Source: Candidatus Methanorbis basalitermitum
GTDB taxonomy: Archaea > Halobacteriota > Methanomicrobia > Methanomicrobiales > Methanocorpusculaceae
Length of the DNA: 64,000 nucleotides
Direction of reading: 5' to 3'
NCBI GenBank assembly: GCA_031287415.1
Contig: JAITSY010000026.1
Span: forward strand, 3,503-67,502
The position numbers and the translations under genes were made by a program. How positions within the stretch are numbered: position 1 is the first letter of the stretch; every line of letters begins with the position of its first letter. The notes under the pieces are model-generated. The model had not been told where the DNA came from and did not search any database. It saw only the letters and a list, made by a program, of their open reading frames with translations. Shown piece by piece: positions 6,090-23,661 of this stretch.

Positions 6090-6092
6090 ACG

Positions 6093-6203
6093 TGTCGATT
6101 TTAGAGGAAATATATAAATAAGCTTCAGTTCTCTATTGATATAGACAGATATATTTCAGATTTGAAGAACAATTTCCATTCAAACTGATAATTCCGAAAA
6201 ATT
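6093..6203 (+). repeat. Repeat family A copy 1 (111-bp AT-rich dispersed element)
   Basis: Aligns without gaps to 12103-12213 and to the reverse complement of 22066-22176. Confidence 0.92.
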
Positions 6204-6204
6204 G

Positions 6205-6260
6205 AGTTGCGGGGTTGCTAACCCCCATGCGGGAGCAACTGCCCCGCCAGCCATACAACT
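6205..6260 (+). repeat. TGCA-rich family B-related short element
   Basis: Starts agttgc, ends gccatacaact like family B right ends. Confidence 0.55.
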
Positions 6261-6346
6261 CAAACCGGCTACAGGTAGAGCCGCAATACAATCAATAAGA
6301 TACAACACAACTTCATTATCCCATCAGATCCAATACAGTTCCATTA

Positions 6347-8356
6347 ATGGCATCCGTCGCCGACTATTTCCCGTACCAGTCCTTCCGCAAAAACCAGAAA
6401 GAAATGCTGGAGGCAGCGGCAAAAACCGCTCGGGATGGAGGCATCCTGATGATAGACGCTCCGACCGGCAGCGGCAAGTCAAGCGTCATTGCTTCTCTCC
6501 TTGCCGAGGCAAACGGCAAAAAGATCTTTGTCGCTGTCCGCACCATCTCTCAGCTGCAAATCTTTATCCGGGAACTCGAACTCATCCGACAGAAGAAAAA
6601 GAAAGATCTCAAGTTCGTCTATCTCATCGGTAAAGGAAACATGTGTCCACTCGGAGGCTATGGTGATGTCTATCGCCGGTGCCAGGGTGTCAAGGCCTTT
6701 TCAACAGCTCTCATGCATGAGCGTGCTGACCGCGGCTCAATGATTCCAGCAAAGGACAAAATGATTCTTGAGCAAATCCGCAGGCAGGATCGCGACCACC
6801 CAATGCTCTGCCCATACTTCATCAGCAGCCGCGTCTTCGTGCAGAGCGAGGATGGCGGTCGACGGATGATTCCCTCGCAGGAGATGCGAACGAAGTCCGA
6901 GCAGGCACAGAAGGGAGTTGTCATGCCAGGTGATCTCCATGAGTTTGCCGGAAACGTCTGTCCGTACGATCTTATGCTCTCCGCTGCCCGCGGTGCGGAT
7001 GTTGTCATCCTCAACTACCATCATCTCTTCAGCGACGACATCCGCGAACAATTATACGTGACACTCCAATGCGAACCGGCCGATGTCATGCTGTTATTAG
7101 ACGAGGCCCACAATCTCGGTGATATCGTGCAGGGCATCCAAAGCATCCGTTTAAGTGAGAATGACATTGAAAGCGCCTCATATGAACTTGCCTCCACCCG
7201 AGGAAAAGTTCGTGGAGCAGATGCCGTCCGGCACGTTCTGCCTCGGATTGCGGAGTTCATGAATGGCCTCAAACGCTCCAACGAAGCAGAGGACTGGTTT
7301 GATCCGGCAATTTTCAACCGACTACTCATCAAAGGTTCACTCTACGAAAAATTCGATGGCATCCTCGATGATCTTCTATCGATTAAAGAGACACTTCGCG
7401 AGGCAAGCATTCAGAAAGCAGACTACCGGGAAACAGCAATCGAGCGGCTGTGTGAATTTCTGTTCCGCATCTACCGATCCTCCTCCAATCCGGCATTTCT
7501 TACCATCTACGTCAAGGACGGCGAATTGGTGATCCTTGAGGTCAGAAACATCGACCCAGCCAATCGGTTGCAGGAAATGGTCACGATGCATGCTGCAACC
7601 GTTCTTATCAGCGGAACGCTTGCACCAGTCGAGGCTTACCGGAGCTATTATTTTGGAGAGTTGCCAGTGGCAACTCTTTCACTGCCAAACTCCTTCCCTA
7701 AAGAAAATCGGCTGATTCTCGCAAGCCACGACATCACCACCGCATTCTCGCGGCGGCAGAATACAGTGAACACGCAAGCTATCGTCACCTACATCCTCGC
7801 GTTTGCAAAACTGCCAGGGAACGTTGCAATCTACTTTCCGTCGTACCAGCTCCAGTCACAATTTGCCAAACTCTGCGACGGTAAAATCAGGACCAAACAG
7901 GTGTTCATCGAGCCACGAGAGACTGAGGAAGCGAATGCCGCCCTCAAGGAGTTTGTGCTGTTACCCGCAAAGCGGAAGTCTGGCATTATGTTTGCTGTCT
8001 GCGGCGGTAAGTGGAGTGAAGGTTTAGACTACCGGGGAGACCAACTGACCGCTGCTATGGTGATCGGTCTGCCTCTCGCCCCGTTTACCAGGGTGCGGAG
8101 GATGGTTAACAGCTACTTTTGCCGCAAGTTCGGTGATAACGGAGAGTTCATCGCCTATACGCTCCCTGCAATGAACAAAGCCATGCAAGCGCTTGGCCGC
8201 GTTCTCCGCACCGAGACCGATCGGGGCGTTCTCATTCTCGGCGAGGAACGGTTCTTGGCTCCCGAGATCTTCTCAGGCCTGCCGCCATGGATGAAAGCTG
8301 AACTTCGGGAATGCGATGCTGACACACTTGCCGGAATCCTTGCCAAATGGAAGTGA
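6347..8356 (+). CDS. xpd: XPD/Rad3 Fe-S DNA helicase
   Basis: APTGSGKS, four Fe-S Cys (NMCP, RRCQ, LCPY, VCPY), DEAH, SGTL, SEGLDY, QALGRVLR. Confidence 0.92.
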   Translation: MASVADYFPYQSFRKNQKEMLEAAAKTARDGGILMIDAPTGSGKSSVIASLLAEANGKKIFVAVRTISQLQIFIRELELIRQKKKKDLKFVYLIGKGNMCPLGGYGDVYRRCQGVKAFSTALMHERADRGSMIPAKDKMILEQIRRQDRDHPMLCPYFISSRVFVQSEDGGRRMIPSQEMRTKSEQAQKGVVMPGDLHEFAGNVCPYDLMLSAARGADVVILNYHHLFSDDIREQLYVTLQCEPADVMLLLDEAHNLGDIVQGIQSIRLSENDIESASYELASTRGKVRGADAVRHVLPRIAEFMNGLKRSNEAEDWFDPAIFNRLLIKGSLYEKFDGILDDLLSIKETLREASIQKADYRETAIERLCEFLFRIYRSSSNPAFLTIYVKDGELVILEVRNIDPANRLQEMVTMHAATVLISGTLAPVEAYRSYYFGELPVATLSLPNSFPKENRLILASHDITTAFSRRQNTVNTQAIVTYILAFAKLPGNVAIYFPSYQLQSQFAKLCDGKIRTKQVFIEPRETEEANAALKEFVLLPAKRKSGIMFAVCGGKWSEGLDYRGDQLTAAMVIGLPLAPFTRVRRMVNSYFCRKFGDNGEFIAYTLPAMNKAMQALGRVLRTETDRGVLILGEERFLAPEIFSGLPPWMKAELRECDADTLAGILAKWK

Positions 8357-8363
8357 AAGAGTG

Positions 8364-8891
8364 ATGCAGACAGGTGCGTGCAGTTTTGGGTTGTGGATGG
8401 TGACCATCTCTTGGGAGGGAAACATTGTGTATCAGGTGCATTTCGCCCGTTCCGCCCAGGCAGGGCCGGTGCCCATGCAGTTCACAAAATTTCTTGCAGG
8501 GAGGACCAACAGCTTCCTGCCTCTGATATCGGCGGTGATTGCCGAAAGCAGCACGGCAGCAAGTAGGCAGATGGCAGTCAGTAACCCAGCGGGGTTGCAA
8601 CACTTCCCACTTGGGGACTGCTGCAGTTCAATCTACACCCGAATTTATGCAGCGGTATCGCAGATTCCTTACGGTGAGACGCGGACGTATCGTGAGATCG
8701 CCCTTTCTGCCAGCACGCACCCAAGAGTCGTCGGTAATGCCATGGCGAAAAACCCAACCGCCCTCATTGTCCCCTGCCATCGGGTCATCGCCTCTAACGG
8801 AACACTTGGAGGATTTACCCCCGATTTGCAGATCAAAAAGGATCTTCTGCGGATGGAAGCAGCAAAAAGGCGTACCTTCGGCAAGTCCTGA
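8364..8891 (+). CDS. ogt: Methylated-DNA-protein-cysteine methyltransferase, with a probable internal insertion of about 26 aa
   Basis: IPYGETRTY, RVVGNAM, NP, PCHRV active site. Confidence 0.9.
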   Translation: MQTGACSFGLWMVTISWEGNIVYQVHFARSAQAGPVPMQFTKFLAGRTNSFLPLISAVIAESSTAASRQMAVSNPAGLQHFPLGDCCSSIYTRIYAAVSQIPYGETRTYREIALSASTHPRVVGNAMAKNPTALIVPCHRVIASNGTLGGFTPDLQIKKDLLRMEAAKRRTFGKS

Positions 8892-9009
8892 CCCCAAACA
8901 AAGCGACAAGAGGCAAGCAGCAGTCTACCACATCCAGCTTGAGGATTGTAACAAACGAACATTTATCTTCATATCTGATAATGATATAAATATAGTAGGT
9001 ATCAGAGGC

Positions 9010-10320
9010 ATGGCTGACAATAATAGTGCAGGAGGTCCAAACCGATATCGCAAGCTATCGGGTATCGGCATCTTGAAACGGCTGTTTTCCTGGGATAAGG
9101 TGCAGTATGAGATAGTTCTCGCGGAAAATGAATATCTGGAGATTGCGGGATCACTATCTACCGCCAATAAAAATATCGAACGATTTAAATACGAAATTGC
9201 CGATTTTACCGAAAAACTCGCCAAAGAAATCGCCGCGCATGAACTCCTAAAGGACAGTTACGAAACCAATAGCAAAAACTGGGCTGAGGATGCAGAGTGC
9301 AAAGCTGTCGCCCTCAAAAAACAGCAAATGGCTCTTGAAGCGGAACTTGCAGATGCAATCGGCAGGGGTGCGAAGCTGGAAATCCGTCTTACACAAAAGG
9401 AGTCTGAGTTATCGGAAAAGACCGAATGCTACGACACGCTCACCGCCGAGTACACTGCCCTCCTGCACAAAAAGAATGAGGCCCTTGACCGTCTTGCCTC
9501 CTCCGAAGAAGCTATCAACTGCCTCAATGCAGAGTTCAAGGAGAGGAGCCGCCTGTTTGTGCCAACTATCCATGAACTTACGCGGACAGTTGACTCCGGA
9601 AAGTATCAGCGTGAATGCGATTTAATGGAGATTCATCGTCTCAAGACCATGCTCGATGCCAGCGGGAAGGAGATTGCTTGCTTGACGCAGGAGCTGAACG
9701 CCCTAAAGGACACCAAGAAGCAGATGCTCACCGAGATCAACCGAATGGGATTTGTATCCATTCAGACCGCCTCTGAAAACCGGCAGAAACAGGAGCAGCT
9801 CAAAGAGGAACAGGCAAAACTCGTGAAAGAGATCAATCAGATCAAACAGACAAAGCAGTCCCTTCAGTCTGATCTCTCCGAAAAACAGCAGACACTCTCC
9901 ACATACTCTGCCATCACCGATGAGATCATCAGGGAGTGGAAAATGCACGGTGACCGGACAAAAGCCTGCATCGCCAAAGCGGCAGGTACTATTCCTGCCG
10001 AGGAGAAGTACGGATTCCTTGCCCTGGTGAGCGGTCATCCTGTTGCCTTTGTGGCATTTTCTCCTGCATCGTATGAGGAGCTGAGAGGAGCTGATGCGAT
10101 GGTCCGCGAGGCTGCAAAGAAACTGGCAAACTCCGTTGCATCGATCAACTGCCGCAAGGAAGCATTTGTTGTTGTGCCAGACGAGTGCATGATGTACATC
10201 ACCAAAAGCATGTATGCCTCGCATGTCTGCTCGGTACAGGTTATCACGCCGTCGCAGATTATTGCAGTGGTCCGGATGATCGCCCAGTTTGTGATCTACG
10301 AAAAGACACAGACCAGGTAA
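9010..10320 (+). CDS. Coiled-coil protein with degenerate RmuC-like C-terminal domain (paralog 1)
   Basis: N-terminal RLFSW motif, long heptad region, EAFVVVP...VQVITP shared with the next ORF; ATG at 9010 after an AT-rich promoter region. Confidence 0.7.
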   Translation: MADNNSAGGPNRYRKLSGIGILKRLFSWDKVQYEIVLAENEYLEIAGSLSTANKNIERFKYEIADFTEKLAKEIAAHELLKDSYETNSKNWAEDAECKAVALKKQQMALEAELADAIGRGAKLEIRLTQKESELSEKTECYDTLTAEYTALLHKKNEALDRLASSEEAINCLNAEFKERSRLFVPTIHELTRTVDSGKYQRECDLMEIHRLKTMLDASGKEIACLTQELNALKDTKKQMLTEINRMGFVSIQTASENRQKQEQLKEEQAKLVKEINQIKQTKQSLQSDLSEKQQTLSTYSAITDEIIREWKMHGDRTKACIAKAAGTIPAEEKYGFLALVSGHPVAFVAFSPASYEELRGADAMVREAAKKLANSVASINCRKEAFVVVPDECMMYITKSMYASHVCSVQVITPSQIIAVVRMIAQFVIYEKTQTR

Positions 10321-10450
10321 CTCTTTGCTCTCTGTTCTTTTCCTCAAATTGGAAGCAAAACCGTGGGGCTGCAGCACTTCCCATGCAGGGGTTGCAACGA
10401 ATGCGCATGTATTATCTGATAGGACACCCATACAATTCTCTGATTAGATT

Positions 10451-11947
10451 ATGAGCGATTCGGATAATCTTGGTACCTTCTTCGGAAAGATCCGGAGCGC
10501 CGGGGCGAGAGCACGCCTTTTTTCCTGGAAAAAAATCTGTGATGCAGCCGCTGCCGCCGAAGAGGCATATACGGATCTAGCTGAGACTCTTGCCGTGACA
10601 CAACAGAAACTTGTCGAAACAGAGAACCTTGCCACTTCCCGGGAAGCCGAGATTGGCAGCCTGAGCACCCGTCTTGCCGAGGCAAAATCCTGCAACGATG
10701 ACCTTCACGGCGATATGGACAGCCTTTCCGAAGACCGGCAGATTCTTGAGGACAGGCTCTCCAAGATGACAAAGACTGCATCCGCCAATGCCAATTCCGC
10801 AGAGCAGTGGAAGGCTGCAGAGGGTGCACGCCGAGCAGAGCTTGCCGCCGTACATGACATGTATAAGGAACTGTCCGCCATTCGTGTCAGTCTTTGTACC
10901 GAACGCGATAATCTTGCAGTAGATCTTGCAGCAGAACGCAGTGCCCATCTTGCGGACAATGACCAGGCAAGAATCTTTCGCGATCAGTATCTTTCCCGTG
11001 AGTTGGAGATCGACGGCCTCCGCAAGGATCTCGATGCATCCATAAAGAAGATTGCTGCGCAGCAGGTAGAAATTGATGGTTATGTTGAGGAACGCGATGT
11101 GAAGTACGCAGCTCTTGCAATCGAGGCTGAACGCCTGAACACTCTTGCGGCAAAGCTTGAAGAGGAGAGGAAAGCAACAGAGCTTTCTGCACGTCAGAAT
11201 CTTGTGGAGATCTTTGCAGACCATCCCAACCGTGTCGGTGCGATTTTGGAAAAGGTCTGTGCTGATCTGAATCTTGATCTCAAAACCGAGACAACCTACA
11301 AGGGAAGGTCGCACCCGAACTTTGCGGTGCTGGTCAACAGCAGCTATGTTTTTTTCAATACGGCAGTCCCTGCATCGCTGGATGCTGCTGCCTTCTTTGA
11401 AGAACATGTTGCAGAAATGGCAACCGAATTATTCGAGGCAGCAAAGGAGGACGGCGTCCGCAGCGAGGCATATCTCGTCGTGCCGAATGCGATTGCGGCA
11501 AAGCTTACCGAGTTAGTGTATGTATCCTACCGCTGTACGGTGTTTGTGGTAACCCCCGAGGCGCTCGAGGCCATTGTCCGCACGCTCAAGAGGATTGAGG
11601 AATACGAGTTCACCCGCCAGATTACGCCATTCGAGTTGGATCAGATATGCCGGTTCATCGGTAAGCTGTCCCACATGACCAAGAGAAAGATCGTGCTTGA
11701 TACGTACTTCAGTAATGAGATGCTGGAGATTCTGCAGATGGTCGAGAATCTGCCGACTGATGTTGCGGCTGATGCGGCAGTCTACGAGCGTGAGGTACGG
11801 ATGAATCCGCCTGCCGAACGCGACACTGCGGTTCTGACGGTGCCGTCGCTTTCGGCAAAGGTGCAGAAACTGGAAAAAGCCATGCTTGTCCGGGCAGCTA
11901 CCGAGGCGAGAGAGGTTTCCGAAAAATCAGAGCTTGCAGAAAAATAA
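10451..11947 (+). CDS. Coiled-coil protein with RmuC-like (PD-(D/E)xK fold) C-terminal domain (paralog 2)
   Basis: RLFSW motif, coiled coil, EAYLVVPN...FVVTPEAL, LKRIEEYEF; T-tract after the stop. Confidence 0.75.
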   Translation: MSDSDNLGTFFGKIRSAGARARLFSWKKICDAAAAAEEAYTDLAETLAVTQQKLVETENLATSREAEIGSLSTRLAEAKSCNDDLHGDMDSLSEDRQILEDRLSKMTKTASANANSAEQWKAAEGARRAELAAVHDMYKELSAIRVSLCTERDNLAVDLAAERSAHLADNDQARIFRDQYLSRELEIDGLRKDLDASIKKIAAQQVEIDGYVEERDVKYAALAIEAERLNTLAAKLEEERKATELSARQNLVEIFADHPNRVGAILEKVCADLNLDLKTETTYKGRSHPNFAVLVNSSYVFFNTAVPASLDAAAFFEEHVAEMATELFEAAKEDGVRSEAYLVVPNAIAAKLTELVYVSYRCTVFVVTPEALEAIVRTLKRIEEYEFTRQITPFELDQICRFIGKLSHMTKRKIVLDTYFSNEMLEILQMVENLPTDVAADAAVYEREVRMNPPAERDTAVLTVPSLSAKVQKLEKAMLVRAATEAREVSEKSELAEK

Positions 11948-12102
11948 TTTTTTGTGATAGCAGGAGGCAGGCTGCGTGGCAGCTCTGCTGGGTTGCAACT
12001 TTAGTGTCTTTGGTGCCTAATAGAGTTGAGGAGAGGCTCAGATGAGGGATGAGGGAAGAACACGTGCATTAAAAAGATATTGTGTTTATGCAAAAATGGA
12101 CT

Positions 12103-12213
12103 TATCGGTTTTGGTTATAATATATAAAGGGTTCGTATATCTCTATTGATATAGACGGTTATATTTCAGATTGGAAGAACGGTCCCCATTCAAACTGAGA
12201 ATTCCGAAAAATT
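12103..12213 (+). repeat. Repeat family A copy 2
   Basis: ctctattgatatagac...tttcagattggaagaac...cattcaaactga.aattccgaaaaatt. Confidence 0.92.
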
Positions 12214-12377
12214 ATGAAACTATGTCTCTATATGGTAAGAAATATAATGTTCGCCACCCGCAGGCAGAAAATTTTCATGGAACCTCTCCACAAAACCGCC
12301 TTCCCATCGATCATCATGTTTAAACAATGCGGCATCTCCCCCATCAGTTGCCTAAGTGGAAGAATGGATCAACATCT

Positions 12378-13121
12378 ATGAAGACATCTTCCGACCTGAC
12401 CCCATCAGCTACCGTACCGGCCAACACAGGGAAAATTTTGCAGAAACGTCTCTTCGAACCAACCTATTCCACCGTCCTTTTCGATATGGACAACACACTC
12501 TTCGATTTCATCGCCGCAATGAAACGAGGAGCAGCGGCGGCAGCAGAAGCAGCAGGGGTTGGAACAGGAGACCATCTGCTATCCTATTATCTCCGGTGGA
12601 AGTACCACATTGAAGACCATGCAAACCTGCAGGATTTTATGATAGATCATCACCGGTTCACCGTGGACAACTATCTTGCTGCCATTCGAGCATTCGAAGA
12701 GGCAAAGTTTGCCTGCCTCGCTCCGTACCCGGGTATCCCCAGTCTTCTCGCATCCCTACAGGAAAAAGGATATCGGCTTGGCATCGTCACCGATGCTTAT
12801 GAGTATGCAGCAGCCGAACGCCTGAAACATACCGGCCTTGAAACCTATTTCGACGTTGTTGTCACCTACGATTCAACCGGTTACAAAAAACCGCATCATG
12901 CACCCTTCGAGTACGCCATGAACTTGCTTGGTACCCGGCCGCATGAAACCGTGTACATCGGCGACTCCATCCGCCGCGACATTGAACCTGCCAAGGCTCT
13001 CGGGCTTGCGGCAGTCTACGCTGCATACGGTGACCGGAATTTTTTTGAACAACAGAGATGCTGCCCGTCCCGCGTTATTGCTGTACACAACCCTGACGAA
13101 CTCGGAAAAATCCTGTTGTAG
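12378..13121 (+). CDS. HAD-superfamily hydrolase (start uncertain)
   Basis: FDMDNTL motif I, GIVTD, KKP, YIGDSIRRDI. Confidence 0.88.
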   Translation: MKTSSDLTPSATVPANTGKILQKRLFEPTYSTVLFDMDNTLFDFIAAMKRGAAAAAEAAGVGTGDHLLSYYLRWKYHIEDHANLQDFMIDHHRFTVDNYLAAIRAFEEAKFACLAPYPGIPSLLASLQEKGYRLGIVTDAYEYAAAERLKHTGLETYFDVVVTYDSTGYKKPHHAPFEYAMNLLGTRPHETVYIGDSIRRDIEPAKALGLAAVYAAYGDRNFFEQQRCCPSRVIAVHNPDELGKILL

Positions 13122-13328
13122 AGATTATGCCGAACGTGAGTAATATTTACTATTTTTGGAAGAAATTCCAGCAAAAACGGATCCGGCATAAGGGGAGGGT
13201 GAAGACGGATTTTTTCCTGCGATTAGGCACACCAGCACCATCGATCAGGATGTGCCCGAAGACAAAGGCTACACCTTCCAAAATACCGCCTTAACCATCC
13301 TGCAAAGTCCGATCAAAAAACCTGCCGA

Positions 13329-13480
13329 AGCTGCAACTCTCTGGTAGAGGTTACGCCGACACATCTGCGCAAGCAGCAAACAAGGCTTGGCCTTGCGTCG
13401 TCAACGGCATGCACGCACAATGCAGGGCAATGGGACAAACATCTCACCAGAGCCTGCATACGCACCGCTGCCATGCAACT
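13329..13480 (+). repeat. Repeat family B copy (full length, MITE-like)
   Basis: agctgca...ctggtagaggttacgccgacacatctgcgcaagcagcaa...ccgctgccatgcaact; inverted ends. Confidence 0.88.
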
Positions 13481-13534
13481 ATCCCCTGTGAACACCATAA
13501 CAATTAATCCCCACACACTCCAATAAAAGAATAT

Positions 13535-14527
13535 ATGCTGGATAAATACAAGGGATGCCTCCTCGGCGCAGTACTTGGCGACGCCCTTGGCATGCCCAGT
13601 GAAACCACCGTAAGTCGGTTCATCGGAGCCACCCTCGGATTCAAACGGGCATACAAAGGTCACCCAAACCATGACCTCCTCCCGGGCCAATACACCGATG
13701 ACTCTCAACTCATCCTCATCGCCTCCCGCCTCCTTGCTGAGGCAAACTGGGGTCCTGAACCATACGCAAAAGAACTGCTCCGCACATATACCCTCAACAA
13801 ATTCCGCTACCCTGACGGAACCATCTACGCCGCATGCAAACGCATGAAAAATACTGGTGACCTCACCGGGTCAGGCGTCTCTTCTGACAGTGCAGGATGT
13901 GTCTCCCTTGCTGTACCCTTTGCGCTTGTTTACAAAGACCGCAGAGAGATGGCGCCCAAACTCCTTGAAGCCTGCAATATCACCCATACCCACACCGGAA
14001 CCGGCGCTGCAGCCATAGGTGTCGCACTCATGCTCAATACCCTCATCGAAACAGGCAACACCGACGACGCATATTTAGCCCTCCTCACTGCCGCACAAAA
14101 TATGAACCCCGATCTTGCTTCCCGCATCAACAACGCAGTCCGTATCGAAAGAACCGGTATGCAGATAACTGACGCCCTTGCTGCAATTGGCAACTCTTCC
14201 TCAATCTATCACACCCTCCCCCTCGCAATATTCCTCTGTAAACGCTACAGCGTCCCAGAAGAACTCCTCACCTCCGCGGCAGCATGTGGCGGCAATGCAG
14301 ACACCCTCACGCTCCTCTGCGGAGCATTCTCCGGCGCGCGTTACGGCATCTCCTCCCTCCCGCAGGAACTCCTTGCCAAACTCGAACGAAGAGGCGAGTT
14401 CGAAGCCCTCGCAGAAAAATTCATCGACCCCAAAAAGCCTGAAATTCCCGCGGCAGCAGAAACACCCAACCAAAAACCCTCGAAAAGTCCGGAGAGCATC
14501 TACGACGCCGGCTGGGAACCCGAATAA
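13535..14527 (+). CDS. ADP-ribosylglycohydrolase (DraG/ARH) family protein
   Basis: GCLLGAVLGDALG, GQYTDDSQL, ITHTH, GGNADT, GAFSGARYG. Confidence 0.9.
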   Translation: MLDKYKGCLLGAVLGDALGMPSETTVSRFIGATLGFKRAYKGHPNHDLLPGQYTDDSQLILIASRLLAEANWGPEPYAKELLRTYTLNKFRYPDGTIYAACKRMKNTGDLTGSGVSSDSAGCVSLAVPFALVYKDRREMAPKLLEACNITHTHTGTGAAAIGVALMLNTLIETGNTDDAYLALLTAAQNMNPDLASRINNAVRIERTGMQITDALAAIGNSSSIYHTLPLAIFLCKRYSVPEELLTSAAACGGNADTLTLLCGAFSGARYGISSLPQELLAKLERRGEFEALAEKFIDPKKPEIPAAAETPNQKPSKSPESIYDAGWEPE

Positions 14528-14554
14528 CCCCACGCTTTTTCAAAGCACAGCAGC

Positions 14555-14660
14555 AGTTGCACGCCCCTGATAGAGGTTACGCCGACACATCTGCGCAGGC
14601 AGCAAGTAAGGCATGGCCTTGTGTCGTCGGCGGCGTGTGCGTGCATTGCATGGCAGCGAC
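14555..14660 (+). repeat. Repeat family B copy
   Basis: agttgcacgcccctgatagaggttacgccgacacatctgcgcaggcagcaag, highly similar to the copies at 13329 and 32641. Confidence 0.9.
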
Positions 14661-14685
14661 ACACCGCCTACTTCAAAGCCCCGTA

Positions 14686-15313
14686 AGGTATTTCCGAACT
14701 GCACCGAGAAGAAGTCCGTGGGGAGGAATTCGTCGCAAATCCCGGCTATTTTCCAAGCGGAACAAACCTTGCTGCAGCACCCGTAGCTGACATCGCTGCG
14801 ACTATCATCTACGACTCAAAGAGTGGCATCTCCGGAACGGGTGACTCCATCTCCGAAACCACCCATTATCCGAACATTGCCGGAAACGCCTCCCCGTACA
14901 AAATCACCTCCCACCGGCATCTACCAGAGATGAAACAGGAAGCAGCATGTCTTGGCTCCAAAGCCAGCATCTACTTCACTCCTCATCTACTTCCGGTAAC
15001 CCGGGGAATTATCACCACTGCCCACATCCTCTTTGAAGAACATGTCTCCTTTGACGAAATCAGGCGCCGTTACGACGCCTTCTACAAAAACGAACCCTTC
15101 ATCCGTTTCCAGATCGCAAAACTTGGCGGTGTTCACGGCTCAAATTTCTGCGACATCAACTTCGAACTCGGGGCAGATGGAATGCGGTTTGTCACCATTT
15201 CCGCAATCGATAACCTCATCAAAGGAGTGGAAGGCCAGGCAATCCAGAACATGAATATCATGTGCGGATACACCGAAATCGATGGACTGCAGGTCCCAGG
15301 AATGTTTCCATAG
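14686..15313 (+). pseudogene. argC: N-acetyl-gamma-glutamyl-phosphate reductase, 5'-truncated and frameshifted
   Basis: ISELHREE / VANPGYFP (catalytic Cys of NPGC lost), [41 protein letters not shown]; N-terminal domain missing. Confidence 0.88.
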
Positions 15314-15359
15314 GAACATTCAAGATACATAAAACAGTTATATACATGCTGATATCCAT

Positions 15360-16445
15360 ATGCAGAGTATCTGTACTGTTAAAGGGTTAAAGGCGTCACC
15401 ACATGAGGTGTAAAAGAAGGAAAATACGGCCTTGCACTCATTAAAGCATCCGGAACAGGGGTGGCTGTCTTTACCAGCAACAAAGTCCGTGCACCGGTTA
15501 TTAATCTCATGGCGGAGCGTACCAAACGCGGGAAGCTTGCAGGCATCATTGCAAACGGTGGATGCGCCAACGCCTATACCGGTGAGCGCGGATATGAGGA
15601 TGCCAAGACTATGGCATCCATCGGTTCGGAGGTTCTTGGTATTTCTGAGAAGGAAACCGGCGTTGCCAGCACCGGTGTGATTGGCAGATACCTTGACCTT
15701 AATCTGATCCGCCGCAAGAGCAATCATGACAGCTGACATGGTGCAGAAGCATGCCCTCGTGCAACGGGAAGGTTTTACCATTGCAGGCATCTGCAACGGC
15801 TCGGGAATGATTGCCCCAAATATGGGCACGATGCTTTCCTTCATCTATACGGATGTGGAGGTCTCCGCAGAGCATCTCCATGAGGCACTAAAGACCGCAG
15901 TGAAGCAGGGAGACGCAGCCCTCCTCAAAAGCTGTGGCAAACTCATCTTTTGGCACACGACCTGCTTTGCCAGTAGCCGTGCAGAAGAGCGAGTCGTTCG
16001 TGCTTTCATCTCCGTCCACAACCACACGGTTCAAACTCTTGCGATGCAGACTGCAGCTGACGGCGAGGGGACAACCAAGATGCTTGAGGTACACGGGTCA
16101 AAGGGGCGTGCCGCGAGAAGGACGCCGAAAAGATCGCGCACGTACTGTGATCACATCACCGCTTGTAAAGAGTACGGTGAAGATCCGAATTGGAGCAGAG
16201 TTGTCTGTGCTGCCGGATGCTCGGGTGTTGAGTTTGCGATTGATGAGCTATCTCTTTCGATCGGTGAAAACGGGAGCGAAACTCTGCTTGTGCAAACAGG
16301 CGAGAACACTGCAGACCTCGTGGGGGCGAAGGCAGCGATGGTCGGCAGGCACATGGTATTTACCATTACACTTGAATTCGGCAGGAAAGAGGCGGTTGCA
16401 TGGGGCTGCGATCTGACAGAAAAATACGTGGAGATACATCAACGC
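15360..16445 (+). pseudogene. argJ: Ornithine acetyltransferase, multiple frameshifts and deletions
   Basis: KEGKYGLALI, VFTSNKVRAP, NGGCANAYTG, ASTGVIG, GSGMIAPNMGTML, DGDESTND, DGEGTTK, GEDPNW, AWGCDLT..YV spread over three frames. Confidence 0.92.
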
Positions 16446-16452
16446 AGACACA

Positions 16453-16764
16453 ATGGCCGGTGAGATTGCGGGGCCCCTCAAGGCATTCAAAATGATCTCA
16501 CTGGCTGATGTGGATGGTGTGATGAACAAAGAACAGACAAAGCTGTTTCACCGCCTTACGCTGAAGAAGGTGGACGCTCTGATGGCAGACGGTGCGATCT
16601 CGGGCGGGATGACCCCGAAGCTTGAGGCGAGTGTGAATGCGGTGCGCCACGGTGTCGAGGGTGTTCATGTGGTGAATGGGAATGCTGAGCACAATCTTCT
16701 TCTGGAGCTGTTCACAAACGAGGGTGTGGGGATGATGATTACGGCTTCGATGATCAATTTCTAA
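16453..16764 (+). pseudogene. argB: Acetylglutamate kinase, C-terminal remnant
   Basis: DVDGVM, ISGGMTPKLEA, VHVVNG...LLLELFTNEGVG; N-terminal two thirds absent. Confidence 0.88.
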
Positions 16765-16852
16765 TCTTTTCGCCAAATTGCAGCCAAAAAACGGGGCTGT
16801 TAACGAAAGTGATTTATTTTTGTGATGCGCTATTGTTAGACAAGGTGGTTTC

Positions 16853-17014
16853 ATGGGAGTTATTTGCTCGATTACGCAGAAACGATGTATGGGTAAGGAC
16901 TGTAAGTTCTGGAGAGCGGATGCGATGATAGATAAGAAGGCGGATACGTTTTACGAGCTGGGAACTGGGGAATGTTTGTTTATTAAGGCAGTCAATCATC
17001 TGCTGGCAAAGTAA
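16853..17014 (+). CDS. Small Cys-rich protein (53 aa), not in the ORF track
   Basis: RBS aggtgg, ATG, MGVICSITQKRCMGKDCKFW...GECLFIKAVNHLLAK, TAA followed by a T-tract. Confidence 0.6.
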   Translation: MGVICSITQKRCMGKDCKFWRADAMIDKKADTFYELGTGECLFIKAVNHLLAK

Positions 17015-17346
17015 TTTTTTGTGTTGTAATGTGGAAATACGCCGCCGAGCGGGAGCATACAGAGGAGCTTTGGGACAGATGCGGGCAGCGGCCGCGATCC
17101 GGTATGCCGAGGCTACTTCGCTGTGCGGGGCCCCACTGGCCGCTGCTGCACTGGGCTGCAAAGCCCGCATCACCCACACTTCTATATACCTTATACACCC
17201 AATAATATAGAGTTTAAAGCACTGTGCCCGTTGCAGTGCCGTACACCAGCAAAGTCAAGGGCTTTGCAGCAGATCACAGGAATGTGGCAGAATGTTTGCA
17301 AAAGAAACTCTGAAACGAAAACTGCTGAACCTGAGGTGAATAAAGA

Positions 17347-17931
17347 ATGTCCAAATCAATGTATGGATACGTTCGGGATGCGTGGAAAAGACCCGCAGAC
17401 TCCGGCGTAAAGAAACTCCTCTGGGAGAGAATGCAAATATGGCGCCGTCAGGGAGCTGTTGTCCGCCTTGAGCACCCGACCCGCATTGACCGGGCCCACG
17501 CACTCGGCTACAAAGCGAAGCCGGGCATCATCATTGTCCGCGCCTCCATCCGCCGCGGCGGCCGCAGAAAGCCGCGTTACATCCGCGGACGCAGAACCAA
17601 CCGCATGGGAATGCGCAAAGCTACTCCCGGAAAGAACCTGCAAAGCATTGCAGAAGAGCGTGCTGCAGACCGCTACCCCAACATGGAAGTCTTAAACTCC
17701 TACTGGGTTGGGCAGGATGGAAAACACAAATACTTCGAGGTCATTCTCGTTGACCGCAGCAGCCCCGAGGTTCTTTCCTGCAAAAATCTGGCCTGGGTTG
17801 CAAACACCCGAGGTCGCGTCTACCGCGGAAAATCCTCCGCAGGTAGAAAAGGACGCGGACTCCGCAGCCGTGGGAGGGGCACGGAAAAGTGCCGTCCAAG
17901 CATCCGTTCGCATAAAAGCCAGGGAAAATAA
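17347..17931 (+). CDS. rpl15e: 50S ribosomal protein L15e
   Basis: [31 protein letters not shown]. Confidence 0.97.
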
Positions 17932-17948
17932 ACCTGTCTTTATTCATT

Positions 17949-18596
17949 ATGATCACCGACGCCTGTGTGTTTACAAACCAGGATTCGGCCGCCACGCCGC
18001 GGCGCCTGGTCCTTACCGCGAAGTCCTGCTGCATATCCCGCGTGATTCTCTGCGGCAATGCTGCTGACGTTCCTGCATCATATGCGGGAGTGACCACTCT
18101 TCGCGGAAAAATCATCGGCAAACAAAACAGCAGAACATTTCCAGACGCCGTCAGAACAAGTCCAAAAGGATGCGTTGTTATGGTAAGTGCCGGAGAAAAC
18201 AGTTTTAACCGGATTGCAGTCAGCACCAAAGGCGTGCATCTTTTAACCAACATTGCCGATCTCCCCAAAGGCGGCTTTGACCACGTCACTGCAAAGATGG
18301 CGGCTGACCATATCACTGGGGTGGTACTGGATCTGTCCTGCATTATCCATCCCAGAAGTCGGCGGACGGCCCTCTTGCGGTATGCGGAGATTCTTCTTTT
18401 GCAGCGGAAGTACCATTTCCCGCTCGTCATCGCAAGCGGAGCAGAGGACCTCTTCGGCATCAAAAACGTTGCCGAAACGATCGCACTCTGCTCGCTCTTT
18501 GGTATGACGCGGGCCGAGGTGTATGCAGCCCAGAACAGTCTGGATGCAGTACTGTCTCCATCGATGCCCGTGACCATTGTCGTCGTGGAGCCATGA
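17949..18596 (+). CDS. rnp3: RNase P protein component 3 (Rpp30)
   Basis: Position in the conserved operon; NRIAV, FDHVTAKMAA, PLVIASGA. Confidence 0.85.
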   Translation: MITDACVFTNQDSAATPRRLVLTAKSCCISRVILCGNAADVPASYAGVTTLRGKIIGKQNSRTFPDAVRTSPKGCVVMVSAGENSFNRIAVSTKGVHLLTNIADLPKGGFDHVTAKMAADHITGVVLDLSCIIHPRSRRTALLRYAEILLLQRKYHFPLVIASGAEDLFGIKNVAETIALCSLFGMTRAEVYAAQNSLDAVLSPSMPVTIVVVEP

Positions 18597-19042
18597 GGTC
18601 GCTCCTACCGACCCTTCGGGAAAACCGTCGGTATATCCTCGTGAAAATCACCGGGGAATTTGACAAGATGCCGCCACAAAAGGAGATCTATCAGAGAGTC
18701 CGCGATGCCGCAGCAGATCTGTTCGGTGACGTGGGTTCTGCAAAAATGCATATCGCGATTGCCTGGTCGGAAGGTGAACATGCTATCATCCGGTGCAGCA
18801 GAGGATGCGAACAGGAGACAATCGCAGCCATCGCGGTAATCACAAAGTTCTGCGGTGCGGCAGCAGTGTTTCGGACAGTGGCGGTGTCCGGAACTCTGCA
18901 TGGCGCAAAAACTCATGTTAAAATCACCTGTTGGGATACGGAGGCCCTGCCAGGCTATCAGTGCTCCGGCAGAAAGGTTGACAGTCTCACAGGTAATAAC
19001 ACACATAAATATCTCACACGAGATGATATACATAAGGAATAA
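18593..19042 (+). CDS. rnp2: RNase P protein component 2 (Pop5)
   Basis: PTLRENRRYI, LFGDVG, VSGTL. Confidence 0.88.
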   Translation: MRSLLPTLRENRRYILVKITGEFDKMPPQKEIYQRVRDAAADLFGDVGSAKMHIAIAWSEGEHAIIRCSRGCEQETIAAIAVITKFCGAAAVFRTVAVSGTLHGAKTHVKITCWDTEALPGYQCSGRKVDSLTGNNTHKYLTRDDIHKE

Positions 19043-19044
19043 TC

Positions 19045-19872
19045 ATGCAGCCACAACAATATCAGATGGGAGGCTACGATCGTGCTATTACGATGTTTTC
19101 TCCCGACGGGCGCTTATATCAGGTAGAATACGCTCGCGAAGCAGTGAAACGCGGAACAACTGCTGTCGGCATCAAATGTGGGATCGGGGTCGTCCTCCTC
19201 GTCGACAAACGTGTCAGTTCCCGTCTTCTGGAACCCTCGTCCATCGAGAAAATTTTCAGAATTGACGAACACATCGGTGTTGCCACCTCGGGTCTTGTCG
19301 GCGATGCTCGGGCACTGGTTGACCGTGCGAGAATCGATGCACAGATTAACCGCGTCAGCTACGGCGAATCTATCGATGTGGAAACCCTTGCAAAGAAGCT
19401 CTGCGACCACATGCAGACCTATACGTTGTTCGGCGGCGCCCGTCCGTATGGAACCGCACTGCTGATTGCAGGTGTGGAGACTGATGCAGACGGTACGCGC
19501 TACCGGCTTTTTGAGACGGATCCATCAGGAACACTGCTTGAGTACACGGCAACTGGCATCGGCATAGGAAGACCGGCGGTTATGAAGCTCTTTGAGGCTG
19601 AGTACAGGGACAATCTTACTGCTGAAGAGACGATTGATCTCGGTCTGAAGGCACTGCACACCGCAACAGAAGGAAAGTTCGATGTGAACACGGTTGAGAT
19701 CGGCGTTGCAGGCACCTATGTTGCCAAGAAACGGACATCCAAAAAGATTGAGCCTCCGGCCGGGCCCGAGACGGTACTACTGCCATTTAGAATACTCAAC
19801 AACGAGGAGGTCAAAGCAGCTGTCGTAAAGTTTTCCAAGGCACATGCCAAGGGTGCGAAGCTGGATGGGTGA
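19045..19872 (+). CDS. psmA: Proteasome subunit alpha
   Basis: GYDRAITMFSPDGRLYQVEYAREAV. Confidence 0.97.
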   Translation: MQPQQYQMGGYDRAITMFSPDGRLYQVEYAREAVKRGTTAVGIKCGIGVVLLVDKRVSSRLLEPSSIEKIFRIDEHIGVATSGLVGDARALVDRARIDAQINRVSYGESIDVETLAKKLCDHMQTYTLFGGARPYGTALLIAGVETDADGTRYRLFETDPSGTLLEYTATGIGIGRPAVMKLFEAEYRDNLTAEETIDLGLKALHTATEGKFDVNTVEIGVAGTYVAKKRTSKKIEPPAGPETVLLPFRILNNEEVKAAVVKFSKAHAKGAKLDG

Positions 19873-19880
19873 AGATAGTC

Positions 19881-20585
19881 ATGATTTCGCTCGATGCTGC
19901 TGTAACGGCACGGTTGGAGACACACGGGCTGAAATTTGAGATTTTGGTCGACCCAGAACTTGCTGACAGGATGCGCCAAGGAGACGAGAACATTGCTATC
20001 GAAGATGTCATTGCCACACAGTATGTATATGAAAACGCTGCCCACGGTGACAAATCACCGGAGGAGGATCTACTAAAGGCGTTTAAAACCACAAACTTTG
20101 AGGATATTGCAAAGCAGCTCATCCTCAAAGGAGAGATCCACTTAACGACCGAACAGCGCCGCAGTTTAACTGAGGAGAAGCGCCGCCGCGTCATCAACTT
20201 CATCTCCCGCAATGCAGTAAATCCGCAGACTGGATTTCCACATCCAGCAGCAAGAATCAAGTTGGCGCTTGAAGGGGTGCGGATCAACTTCGATCCGTTC
20301 AGATCGGTGGACGAACTGGTAAAGGAAACGGTAAAGGCTCTGCGGCCTATCCTTCCGATTCGATTTGAGGAGCGCAAAATTGCCGTGCGATTTCCGATGG
20401 ATTTTGCCACCAGGGCATTTGGGGCGGTCTCCGGAGCGGCATATGTTACGGTGGAAAAGAACGAGTGGCAGAACGACGGTTCGTGGATCTGTGTTGCCAA
20501 GATCCCCGCAGGAATGCAGGAGGAGTTTTTCAGCCTGGCAAATCATGTGGCAAAGGGCGATGCCCAGATCAAGATTTTAGAATAA
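19881..20585 (+). CDS. Ribosome maturation factor SBDS/Sdo1
   Basis: KFEILVDP, GEIHLTTEQRR, NPQTGFPHP, IPAGMQ. Confidence 0.95.
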   Translation: MISLDAAVTARLETHGLKFEILVDPELADRMRQGDENIAIEDVIATQYVYENAAHGDKSPEEDLLKAFKTTNFEDIAKQLILKGEIHLTTEQRRSLTEEKRRRVINFISRNAVNPQTGFPHPAARIKLALEGVRINFDPFRSVDELVKETVKALRPILPIRFEERKIAVRFPMDFATRAFGAVSGAAYVTVEKNEWQNDGSWICVAKIPAGMQEEFFSLANHVAKGDAQIKILE

Positions 20586-20635
20586 GATTAAATCCCCTAA
20601 GAACCAAAGATAAGAGATATTTCTGAGGAAGATTC

Positions 20636-20953
20636 ATGGCACCCAAGAGTAAACACGCAGCAAAGGGACGGGTTACCGGCAGTTCCGGACGATTTGGTCC
20701 GCGATATGGTCGTTTCAATCGCAAAATGGTAAATGAGAGTGAGAAGATCTCCCGCGCAAAACACCTATGCCCGATGTGTGACACTGTGGCAGTCAAACGT
20801 GCCGGAACCGGCATCTGGAAGTGCAAGAAGTGTGGATATAAATATGCAGGTGGTGCATATGTTCCGCAGACCCCAGCCTTAAAAATCGTTCTTCGTTCCA
20901 TTGAGACCAAGGGAGTGGAACAAAATGGTCAGTTACAAGTGCGCCCGTTGTAA
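20636..20953 (+). CDS. rpl37ae: 50S ribosomal protein L37ae
   Basis: [27 protein letters not shown]. Confidence 0.95.
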
Positions 20954-21056
20954 GCAAACTGTTGAAATTGACGCAAATGTCCGTTGTCCCTACTGTGGAC
21001 ACCGTATTCTCTTTAAGGTGCGTGGGGCCGGAACGAAAGTGTTAAAAGCCAGATGA
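20925..21056 (+). CDS. rpoP: RNA polymerase subunit P (Rpo12), not in the ORF track
   Basis: [33 protein letters not shown]; canonical position. Confidence 0.93.
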
Positions 21057-21454
21057 CCCTCGTAACTTCGTCGCGCAAACCGTCACCGGAAGTGCGCAAG
21101 CTCGCAAAGGAGATCGCCTTTGCGCTTGATCTCCCGTATGTTCAGCGGGGAAAAACCGGTCTTCGGAGGATGGATGCTGAAGATTCGGTAATCATTTTTC
21201 TGTCCAGTGCAAAGCGCGGTGGCCAGATATTTGCTCTGACGGTGAAAGGTCAGATTGTTTTTTCCATGCTGATTACCAACGTAGTAACGAGCAGGCGGAC
21301 AGAGCCATTCCATCACGGTTTTGTTATCCGGGAGCATGAGTTATATGATGTGCTGTCGCCGCATTTTCCGGTGATATTTGATGTGGATGCGCTTGGCCCG
21401 ATTGTGTTTTCCGGCACACAAAAGATGCAGTACATCCTGCAGGTTATGGTATGA
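21053..21454 (+). CDS. Short Brix/Imp4-like ribosome biogenesis protein
   Basis: VTSSRKPS...QRGK start; conserved position after rpoP. Confidence 0.7.
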
Positions 21455-21687
21455 CGGCAACGCATGCAGCCGAGTTCCGGTTCGAGTGCCCATATGCGGA
21501 GATGATGTATGCAGTGCTCGCGCCAGAGGCAGACTCATATCCAAGAGAAAGGTCGCGGGTGCATCTCTCCCATGATAGGTGTTCTGTGACACTGTTTGTA
21601 GAGGCTGAGGACACAGCAGCCCTCCGGGCATCGCTCAATATGTGGCTACGCCTGGTAAATGTGTGCAAAGAAGTATTGGAGTTGTAA
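21451..21687 (+). CDS. pcc1: KEOPS subunit Pcc1
   Basis: EAEDTAALRASLNMWLRLV. Confidence 0.9.
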   Translation: MTATHAAEFRFECPYAEMMYAVLAPEADSYPRERSRVHLSHDRCSVTLFVEAEDTAALRASLNMWLRLVNVCKEVLEL

Positions 21688-21689
21688 AA

Positions 21690-22067
21690 ATGGCAAACCC
21701 ACAGGCGGGCATTTCCCCGCAAATTCAGCAGCAGCTGGCAATGTTTCAGCAGATTCAGCAACAACAGCAGCAGGTATCTTCCCAGAAGATGCAGTATGAG
21801 ATGACGCTTCGCGAGACCAAACGTGCCCTTGAGGAACTCAGCACCGCAGCAGAGGATACGGCTGTGTTCTTTTCAGCAGGTTCGATTCTGATCCAGAAAA
21901 AAAAGGGTGCAGTTGCAGCAGATCTTCAGGAGAGGATCGATTCGGTGGAGCTTCGGGTAGGTTCTCTTGACAAGCAGGAGAAGGCAATGACTGCAAAAGC
22001 AAGCCAACTGCAAAAACAGATTCAGGATGCACTCGCCATCCAAGGCGGTGGACAGGCTGCCCAATAA
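21690..22067 (+). CDS. pfdB: Prefoldin beta subunit
   Basis: Gln-rich helix, ALEEL, AGSILI hairpin; operon position. Confidence 0.92.
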   Translation: MANPQAGISPQIQQQLAMFQQIQQQQQQVSSQKMQYEMTLRETKRALEELSTAAEDTAVFFSAGSILIQKKKGAVAADLQERIDSVELRVGSLDKQEKAMTAKASQLQKQIQDALAIQGGGQAAQ

Positions 22068-22176
22068 TTTCTCGGAATTATCAGTTTGAATGGGAATTGT
22101 TCTTCAAATCTGAAATATAACAGCCTATATCAATAGAGAACGAAGAAACATCTATATATTACCACTAAAACCGATA
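22066..22176 (-). repeat. Repeat family A copy 3
   Basis: Reverse-complement match to copies 1 and 2; abuts the pfdB stop codon. Confidence 0.92.
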
Positions 22177-22298
22177 GGTTTATAATTTTTTCTGTTCTAT
22201 GGATAAGATTTCATCATCACAGCCAAATTTCGCACCAGTTTCGCGTTTTTCCATACTGCAATACACAGACATTTCCCCCAAACAGGTACGAAAAGATA

Positions 22299-22371
22299 CG
22301 CTCAAGTCGGAATTCGAATCCGAGTCGATGCCGTGACAGGGCATCATGATAGGCCACTACACTACTTGAGC
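22299..22371 (-). tRNA. tRNA-Asp(GUC)
   Basis: gctcaag/cttgagc acceptor stem, anticodon arm gatgcc-ctGTCac-ggcatc, ttcgaat T-loop. Confidence 0.95.
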
Positions 22372-22404
22372 ACAAGAAATTTCTGACTGCGGTCACGAAA
22401 ATGA

Positions 22405-22510
22405 TCCCGACTCCCGGATTCGAACCGGGGACATCGCGGTAGCCGCGCAGTATGCCCGCAGACATGAATCTTACTACAGCCGCGCACTCTACCATCTGAG
22501 TTAAGTCGGG
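22405..22510 (-). tRNA. tRNA-Tyr(GUA) with an intron of about 33 nt at 37/38
   Basis: C1-G72 acceptor cccgact/agtcggg, cgcgg-ctGTAg[intron]a-ccgcg, ggttcgaatcc. Confidence 0.92.
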
Positions 22511-22805
22511 ATGACTGCTCTAATAACAATGCTGTTTTCAGATATAAACATGACGCTTCGCGTGATATTACGCATAAAAAAGGGCTTACTTCGGTTATCT
22601 GGGACCTGGCGATATGATCGGCGTTTTTGGAACGGCAGAGAAATCAGCAGTACTGAGTTTCCCTGGTTCTCATTTTTTATCAAGCCAATTTTCTGCAGGT
22701 CGATAGGCAGGCGGGATGACATTCCAGTATCATGTTGTTTTTGGCATACATCCCTCGGGAACAGGCTGCCTGATACCGGGTATCTCTATCATTCCGTTTT
22801 CGAAT

Positions 22806-22918
22806 ATAGTTTTGAAATTATCAGTTTGAATGGGAACTGTTCTTCAAATCTGAAATATAACAGTCAATATCAATAGAGAATAAAGAAATAAAGAGATAGT
22901 GAGTAACTAAAACCGATA
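22806..22918 (-). repeat. Repeat family A copy 4
   Basis: Reverse-complement match with a 2-nt insertion in the variable part. Confidence 0.9.
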
Positions 22919-23019
22919 ATTCCATACATATGCCTTAACATCCAAAATAAGATCGCCCATCTCAAAAAACGAAGAAAAATCACGAAAAAATACCATTTTG
23001 GTCTTTTGCTTGCGGTCAC

Positions 23020-23400
23020 GGCCGTAGTAACGTGTATCGCGCCTGCGGTGACGCTGTCAGGAAACCCGCCGACCCTGTAAAAGCAGGATACAGCTTTGGC
23101 GGCGGGTATACGGATAAGGCCTCTGCACGAGGGCATGGAACTTCGGCAACCCTATTCGGGGAGACATGCCCCTGCATGCCAAATGGATCCCGGGAGGAAC
23201 AGTGACACCAGCTCCCATGGCGACCAAAGAACCTGCAGTGAAACCGCCCGAAGCATCAGCGGTGCCGACTGCGCAGCCCGTGCCCACCCCATCAGGCACC
23301 TCTACACCTCCAACTAAGACTCCAAACACCACGCGCGATTCGACATGGCCCACCAAGCTACTGGCAGCGGGCGTACTGATCCGAGAAAGAGACAGAGCAC
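23020..23400 (+). pseudogene. Remnant of a cell-surface protein (InlB B/Listeria-Bacteroides repeat, Pro/Thr linker, decayed C-terminal anchor)
   Basis: KPADPVKAGYSFGG.YTD then, after a frameshift, WNFGNPIRGDMPLHAKW; PT-rich linker; TKTP...LLAAGVLIRER; no start or signal peptide. Confidence 0.7.
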
Positions 23401-23529
23401 TCTTCTTCTGCACCTTTTTCAGAAACTATCCAGTGAAATCCCTGGCAGACAGGAATCACGCTTTTGGCATCCCCTATCCAGGCTGGAAAAACACTGACAA
23501 TCCGTCTGCGGTGACCCGTCATCTCTTAA

Positions 23530-23580
23530 GCTGCAAAACAAAAGGCTTTGCAGCCCTGCGAGACAACGAAGTCGCACGGC
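23530..23580 (-). repeat. Repeat family C (GCTGCAAAGCC hairpin)
   Basis: Reverse complement gcgacttcgttgtctcgcagggctgcaaagcc matches the 56807-56857 copy. Confidence 0.8.
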
Positions 23581-23661
23581 ACTTCCAGGCACGGGCTTTG
23601 TCGTGCGCCCTGATCAATACATGCATGGAGAAAAATTCATAGTTGTCTGGCACCATCTCTC

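Follow-up and report, generated by a model that had tools for sequence, protein, structure and literature searches.

What is the short AT-rich sequence that recurs in a 64,000-nucleotide stretch of Candidatus Methanorbis basalitermitum (the window, by which we mean the whole stretch), and what put it there? The window belongs to contig C30 of an assembly, G000, that comprises 1,162,173 bp in 33 contigs and is 74% complete. Among named proteins, its SBDS protein is closest to those of Methanocorpusculum, with identities of up to 88%. An earlier note made from the letters of the window had reported four homologous AT-rich copies, and a hidden Markov model (HMM) of the family recovered all four at those places and on those strands, with E values from 1e-28 to 1e-35. 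We are highly confident that the sequence is a 110-bp miniature transposable element with inverted repeats (MITE) of the IS1595 family, consisting of the left end of a parent transposon, about 11 transposase codons and a right repeat, and that its ~110 copies were likely spread in trans by the transposase of an IS1595 element and are now likely immobile.

The HMM was built from the four window copies with one iteration, and the reversed genome served as the control. A genome-wide search of the kind proposed in the earlier note did find further copies, 109 in total at E<=1e-5 and 113 at E<=1e-3, compared with a single match of E 2.5 in the reversed genome. The density is about one copy per 10.7 kb in 1.16 Mb, the family making up ~1.1% of the assembly; therefore, four copies in 64 kb represent the ordinary density, and the arrangement as two direct-repeat pairs loses the meaning it had been given.

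The family consensus is 110 bp long rather than the 111 bp initially proposed; it starts with CGGA(C/A)TTATC and carries an imperfect terminal inverted repeat (TIR) with 17 matches in 21 positions. The boundaries first drawn had placed the copies correctly and their ends about 6 bp away, the last 7 bases being target duplication or flank; the TIR, described as not clear, was overlooked because the copies as drawn lacked the first 6 bp, which are decayed in copies 1 and 3. Flank statistics, run on the 83 near-full-length copies, indicated a target duplication of fixed length: flank identity at k=8 was 0.506 compared with 0.389 in shuffled flanks (z 6.4), and duplications with at most one mismatch were found in 14 of the 83 copies against 1.0 expected, a value that none of 500 shuffles reached, whereas the other lengths (k 2-13) gave z<=2.8. 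The matches were bimodal, with these 14 copies at 7-8 of 8 and the remainder resembling background. Both flanks were AT-rich over 9 bp, giving the target A-WWnnnnWW-T.

A 10-bp interrupted inverted-repeat stem near the right end is present as it had been drawn, and it is the feature that would favour an IS200/IS605-derived, hairpin-ended element moved by a Y1 transposase, the type suggested earlier. To our knowledge, however, IS200/IS605 elements have neither TIRs nor target duplications. The element has both, the 8-bp duplications contradict this assignment, and the element's homology to the left ends and codons of IS1595 transposons and the absence of covariation in the stem argue in the same direction; we consider that the suggestion of a non-autonomous mobile element stands, and that there is next to no chance that it is of the IS200/IS605 type.

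The genome contains the remains of a suitable parent family. PF12762 (DDE_Tnp_IS1595) had 15 matches in G000, PF12760 matched N-terminal transposase pieces, and tblastn returned 32 transposase loci, including some that are spurious or contig-end duplicates. The longest open transposase frame covers 189 of ~300 amino acids, and the assembly, which is 74% complete, contains no intact transposase. Among the 20 loci of G000 that have an N-terminus, MITE positions 1-93 were collinear with the left ends of the insertion sequences (ISs) at z>=4 in 18, and MITE position 60 coincided with transposase codon 1 in 17. The consensus reads LLYFRFEELFP in this frame, compared with MLYKEFEELFP and LLYLEFEEMFP in the IS remnants, so that its first ~93 bp are an IS1595-family left end followed by the first ~11 transposase codons. 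As had been stated, there is no intact open reading frame (ORF), the transposase frame extending over at most 17 codons; the stem described above is the pairing of the first transposase codons with the right end, and the TATA-like stretch of the element would mark the place of the parent transposase promoter.

Outside the genome, the closest full-length transposase homologues shared 52-66% identity and were bacterial where named, and among 400 other genomes of the phylum transposase matches were found in only 8, at 29-39% identity. Of 18 bacterial and archaeal loci of the same clade that were examined, four (L051, L057, L058 and L060) had TIRs starting with CGG(A/T)ATTAT and a perfect 8-bp AT-rich duplication, with passenger DNA behind the transposase, and another, L063, had a TIR matching at 19 of 20 positions and a duplication matching at 6 of 8. 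Intact bacterial relatives have CGGAATTATC-type ends and 8-bp duplications, as in the MITE, and the best hits and their distribution suggest that the IS1595 elements are probably of bacterial origin. The MITE ends, CGGnnTT/ggnnatTAT, resemble what we take to be the motifs of the ISNha5/ISNwi1 group. An 8-bp duplication and a single transposase with an N-terminal zinc ribbon and a DDE domain are among the features ascribed to the IS1595 family in the sections of its description that concern us (PMC8101967). The MITE shares the 8-bp duplication with this family, whose groups are ISPna2, ISH4, IS1016, IS1595, ISSod11, ISNwi and ISNha5, and the G000 remnants carry the PF12760 and PF12762 domains; unlike these ISs, the MITE is non-autonomous, measures 110 bp and retains only ~11 codons, and it is placed at the family level.

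The element is restricted to this lineage in the material that we searched. It was found by blastn in 0 of 40 relatives, the HMM found nothing with E<=1 in the whole of G044 (1.83 Mb) or in the 393 kb (of ~2 Mb) covered by the second reference, G004, the PF12762 transposase family was found in 0 of 44 genomes of the genus, and neither a parent nor further copies turned up in plasmids or in the scanned metagenome contigs, a set from which records close to the window may be absent. The comparison with relatives that had been suggested did reveal empty orthologous sites in G044 or G004: two correspond to copies on other contigs (C25:21380 and C26:32652), and one to copy 3 of the window, where G004 has the T-tract once. 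The copies are on average 85% identical to the consensus and 76% identical to one another, the nearest pair is 91% identical (apart from one contig-end overlap), and no young pair was found. Linkage between variants reached p<0.001 in 2 of 378 pairs, with none among the 3' variants beyond one at p 0.03, and subfamily structure was rejected on this near-zero linkage. The copies likely descend from one old, star-like burst.

Two functional readings had been offered in the earlier note, a self-promoted small RNA and a protein-binding chromosomal site, and neither was borne out. An Rfam scan of the window returned RNase P and three tRNAs only, leaving the element unmatched. No covariation was seen in the stem among the four window copies (0 of 22 pairs), and of 820 alignment cells in the stem across the family, 705 were unchanged, 28 had one side kept, 74 were broken, 3 were compensatory, 3 were double-broken and 7 were gapped. 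Orientation to flanking genes, which were called with a hexamer-based ORF caller, was unbiased (26 versus 23, p 0.78), and convergent gaps were mildly enriched (28 of 92, compared with 103 of 486 gaps of at least 150 bp), as expected for tolerated insertions; a promoter or terminator role was rejected on these two counts. More generally, a native chromosomal site or host non-coding RNA that does not derive from a transposon would agree with the location of 108 of the 109 copies outside called ORFs and with the internal dyads, but it is contradicted by the empty orthologous sites and the transposase codons inside the element, the absence from the 40 relatives and the lack of an Rfam match also speak against it, and we regard it as very improbable.

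One feature of the decay is less simple. Divergence was 0.107 at positions 45-110 and 0.206 at positions 1-44, and this difference held separately at A/T sites (p 3e-4) and at G/C sites (p 4e-5); A/T sites in the stem were better conserved than other 3' sites (0.059 versus 0.107, p 0.008). Context-dependent mutation was checked at fourfold sites, which are saturated (~51% different). Gene conversion, the local mutation rate or selection may be the cause. A selective explanation would accept the origin as a MITE and hold that positions 45-110 have been kept, for instance because they bind a host protein or yield an antisense RNA damping IS1595 transposase mRNAs. It is favoured by the lower divergence in both base classes and the additional conservation of the stem A/T sites, and the conserved part, which comprises the transposase ribosome-binding region, its first codons and the element's right end, would correspond to the portion of the parent that is found in its mRNA. 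However, the stem shows no covariation, the 3' part folds only weakly (z -0.7), there is no orientation bias, selection would act only weakly on any one of 110 redundant copies, and gene conversion among copies that exchange flanks, or a local difference in mutation rate, would give an equal pattern. The excess of 5'-truncated copies (17 to 3) is partly due to insertions of a younger IS in the AT-rich box. We therefore regard selective maintenance as unlikely. A fuller version, in which the 3' two-thirds of ~110 copies, kept by selection or concerted evolution after a bacterial IS1595 invasion, would form a dispersed antisense anti-transposase or protein-binding element whose copies reshuffle the chromosome of a putatively host-associated methanogen, is slightly less likely still.

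Returning to the MITE itself, we found that its copies have taken part in rearrangements. Relative to G044, 65 of 87 MITE junctions and 217 of 457 other junctions were synteny breaks (gap-matched odds ratio 2.2, p 0.005). Collinearity with that genome was more frequent among copies whose duplication is clear (7 of 13 versus 11 of 55, p 0.03). Six pairs of left and right flanks lie on different copies here and are adjacent in G044; the sixth proved to be a single copy cut by the younger IS, and the other five matched at 8, 8, 8, 7 and 6 of 8 positions, a sum that was reached in 0 of 200000 random draws. Three of these pairs are inverted, their members lying within a single contig at a distance of 4-14 kb, and two of the five are also adjacent in G004. 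Since the five split target duplications are adjacent in G044, the rearrangements ran through the copies, and at least five did so. The rearranged copy pairs were 71-84% identical, the comparison being with relatives at ~80% DNA identity. Replicative inversion, examined as sister-copy likeness in rearranged pairs, was rejected, with 1-3 shared variants against a background mean of 2.0. The MITE accounts for some of the reshuffling and not for most of it.

We propose the following course. IS1595-type elements would have entered the lineage, probably from bacteria, and an internal deletion, possibly via short microhomology, would have fused codon ~11-14 to the right end. A transposase would then have put copies into A-WWnnnnWW-T targets with the 8-bp duplication, the duplication being observed and the enzyme presumed. 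The survivors, observed almost only in intergenic DNA, have decayed to the present ~85% identity, and the five or more rearrangements via copy pairs, by homologous recombination or by the transposase, have split the target duplications.

Several points weigh against this account. No IS remnant with the exact left and right ends of the MITE was found in the assembly, and because of this the parent is deduced from siblings that are 60-70% similar. A clear target duplication is absent from 69 of the 83 copies; at collinear sites the duplications are eroded too (2, 3, 4, 5, 5, 5 and 8 of 8), from which it follows that decay, besides the swapping of flanks, explains many of the unclear ones. Pure neutrality would not predict that positions 45-110 decay half as fast as positions 1-44. 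As for the rearrangements, the distance cut-offs for split duplications were set after a first look at the synteny data, no enrichment was seen of breaks whose two reference-adjacent ends both carry a MITE (17 versus 12.5, p 0.10), and exact left/right 8-mer matches counted genome-wide without synteny numbered 14, which does not exceed what the reverse-complement controls (10 and 10) would indicate. Breaks also occur in the background without any MITE: G004 and G044 differ by 66 per 272 kb (0.24 per kb), compared with 0.32 per kb between G000 and G044 and 0.31 per kb between G000 and G004.

MITEs, rearrangements driven by mobile genetic elements (MGEs), a haloarchaeal IS1595 MITE and hybrid target duplications are all well known, and aspects of MITE biology are reviewed in PMC10969869. 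The IS1595-type MITE of Haloquadratum walsbyi, whose partner is ISHwa6, is listed with a length of 165 bp, 7 copies, an inverted repeat of 25 and a direct repeat of 8 (PMC3852290, Table 4). It shares with ours the archaeal host, the IS1595 family, the 8-bp direct repeat and the short length; the host here belongs to another order and carries ~15 times more copies, the likeness being one of descriptions and not of compared sequences. The present element also has long interior homology to its parent, including coding sequence, whereas similarity in H. walsbyi is mostly within the inverted repeats, according to the part of that paper that deals with it (PMC3852290). In Halobacterium salinarum, an account of 'hybrid' target-site duplications describes how duplications split by rearrangement mark MGE-triggered inversions, including some around MITEHsal3 (PMC7002104); as far as that account goes, the copies there are young and near-identical and come from strains of a single species, in contrast to the old copies compared here with relatives at ~80% identity. 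From what partial sources describe for host-restricted bacteria (the Cardinium MITE and anglerfish symbionts), a high-copy MITE, broken transposases, pseudogenes and a host-associated genome are in common, and unlike these bacterial bursts of ISs and MITEs the present case concerns a methanogenic archaeon whose host association is putative. No report of this element, or of an IS1595 MITE in Methanocorpusculum, was found in the literature, a search outside which ISfinder and subscription papers lay, so that 'uncatalogued' is not established; in a term search of the main text of a 2026 preprint on the genus (10.64898/2026.05.13.724943), neither transposons nor MITEs, repeats or synteny were found to be mentioned.

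What is added is an IS1595 radiation that is specific to one lineage, probably came from bacteria and is seen in a single Methanocorpusculum-like genome, with 0 of 44 congeners sharing it, and a MITE whose anatomy still shows how it was cut from the parent. Its ~110 copies are dated markers of neutral appearance with which mutation could be studied in an uncultured archaeon, and five rearrangements are legible directly from split target duplications. We see in it a useful case of a methanogen genome being eroded by transposons, with no new mechanism; the half-rate 3' decay is the sole feature that could prove surprising. The positions of the features are given in the table.

Table. Positions of the MITE copies, the parts of copy 3 and the copies of a younger 58-bp MITE (window coordinates unless a contig is named).
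Feature	Position	Strand	Remarks
MITE copy 1	6087..6196	+	110 bp; flanking 8-mers match 5/8
MITE copy 2	12097..12206	+	110 bp; flanking 8-mers match 3/8; synteny break versus G004, G009, G042 and G044
MITE copy 3	22073..22182	-	110 bp; 92% identity to family consensus; in T-tract after prefoldin beta
MITE copy 4	22813..22924	-	112 bp; flanking 8-mers match 4/8
Copy 3, left terminal inverted repeat	22162..22182	-	element positions 1-21; first bases decayed
Copy 3, remnant of transposase codons 1-11	22091..22123	-	element positions 60-92
Copy 3, right terminal inverted repeat	22073..22093	-	element positions 90-110
Copy 3, target duplication, left, 8 bp	22183..22190	-	7/8 match to 22065-22072
Copy 3, target duplication, right, 8 bp	22065..22072	-	
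Younger 58-bp MITE copies	C14:5879-5936, C9:29678-29735, C27:83989-84046, C32:200-257		

Copies 1 and 3 had both been placed directly after stop codons. This is correct for copy 3, which follows the stop of prefoldin beta, and it needs amending for copy 1, whose own first three bases (6087-6089, decayed from the TIR start) are the present stop codon of arcS; in the relative G042, the equivalent of arcS ends at the equivalent place with a stop of its own. Relatives hold more DNA at the places of copies 1 and 4, and at the site of copy 4, G004 has an aldehyde-dehydrogenase-like ORF, named from its translation only, that is missing here. The break at copy 2 adjoins a HAD gene, the neighbourhood of which is collinear among G004, G009, G042 and G044. 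Besides arcS, the neighbours in the window are an xpd-like helicase, ogt, tRNA-Asp and an intron-containing tRNA-Tyr, as previously named; the RmuC-like gene was not upheld, since it has no Pfam or NCBIfam match above cut-off and only weak SMC/coiled-coil similarity.

A small membrane-protein-like ORF that follows prefoldin beta in G004 is largely missing from the window at 22190-22300, and the long aldehyde-dehydrogenase-like ORF, which follows tRNA-Tyr, is largely missing at 22540-23610 (both named from translation). At 14930-16764, what is present of argC, argJ and argB is truncated frames that score far below the family cut-offs, a segment of ~130 bp within this region is inverted relative to four relatives, and arginine biosynthesis looks pseudogenised. 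A second, GC-rich, palindromic family resembling repetitive extragenic palindromic (REP) sequences occurs at ~23040-23190 and in ~150 other G000 segments, and is also found in G004, G009, G042 and G044; its junctions are rich in breaks too (72 of 108). Pieces of the window were matched in run X1, labelled as a termite gut metagenome, with 0 differences over 185-457 bases; this run may be the source data and is no independent support.

Within the 110-bp element, several copies, for example those at C18:5995, C8:57842 and C23:1065, have the AT-rich box (positions 24-31) lengthened to extended (TA)n tracts. Positions 61, 72, 85 and 100 are the central bases in C-W-G triplets, and in many copies they are exchanged between T and A (or for G), for example in 36 of 82 at position 61, with nearly invariant neighbours; these flips may be a mutational signature or old polymorphism.

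The younger IS1595-type family mentioned above has ends of the form CGGAATGATACC and is near-identical between copies, having collapsed at many contig ends of G000 (for example the starts of C10, C26, C29, C30, C33 and C7, and the ends of C12, C13, C22, C23 and C27). It has a MITE of its own, a 58-bp, almost perfect palindrome (56 of 58) with six full copies at 96-100% identity. The older MITE was considered as a preferred landing pad for this younger IS and rejected as such, because 13 of 51 termini were close to a copy, a number that target-like sites would lead one to expect (p 0.31). One younger-family insertion does split a copy of the older MITE, between the end of C13 and the start of C7, with a perfect 8-bp duplication.

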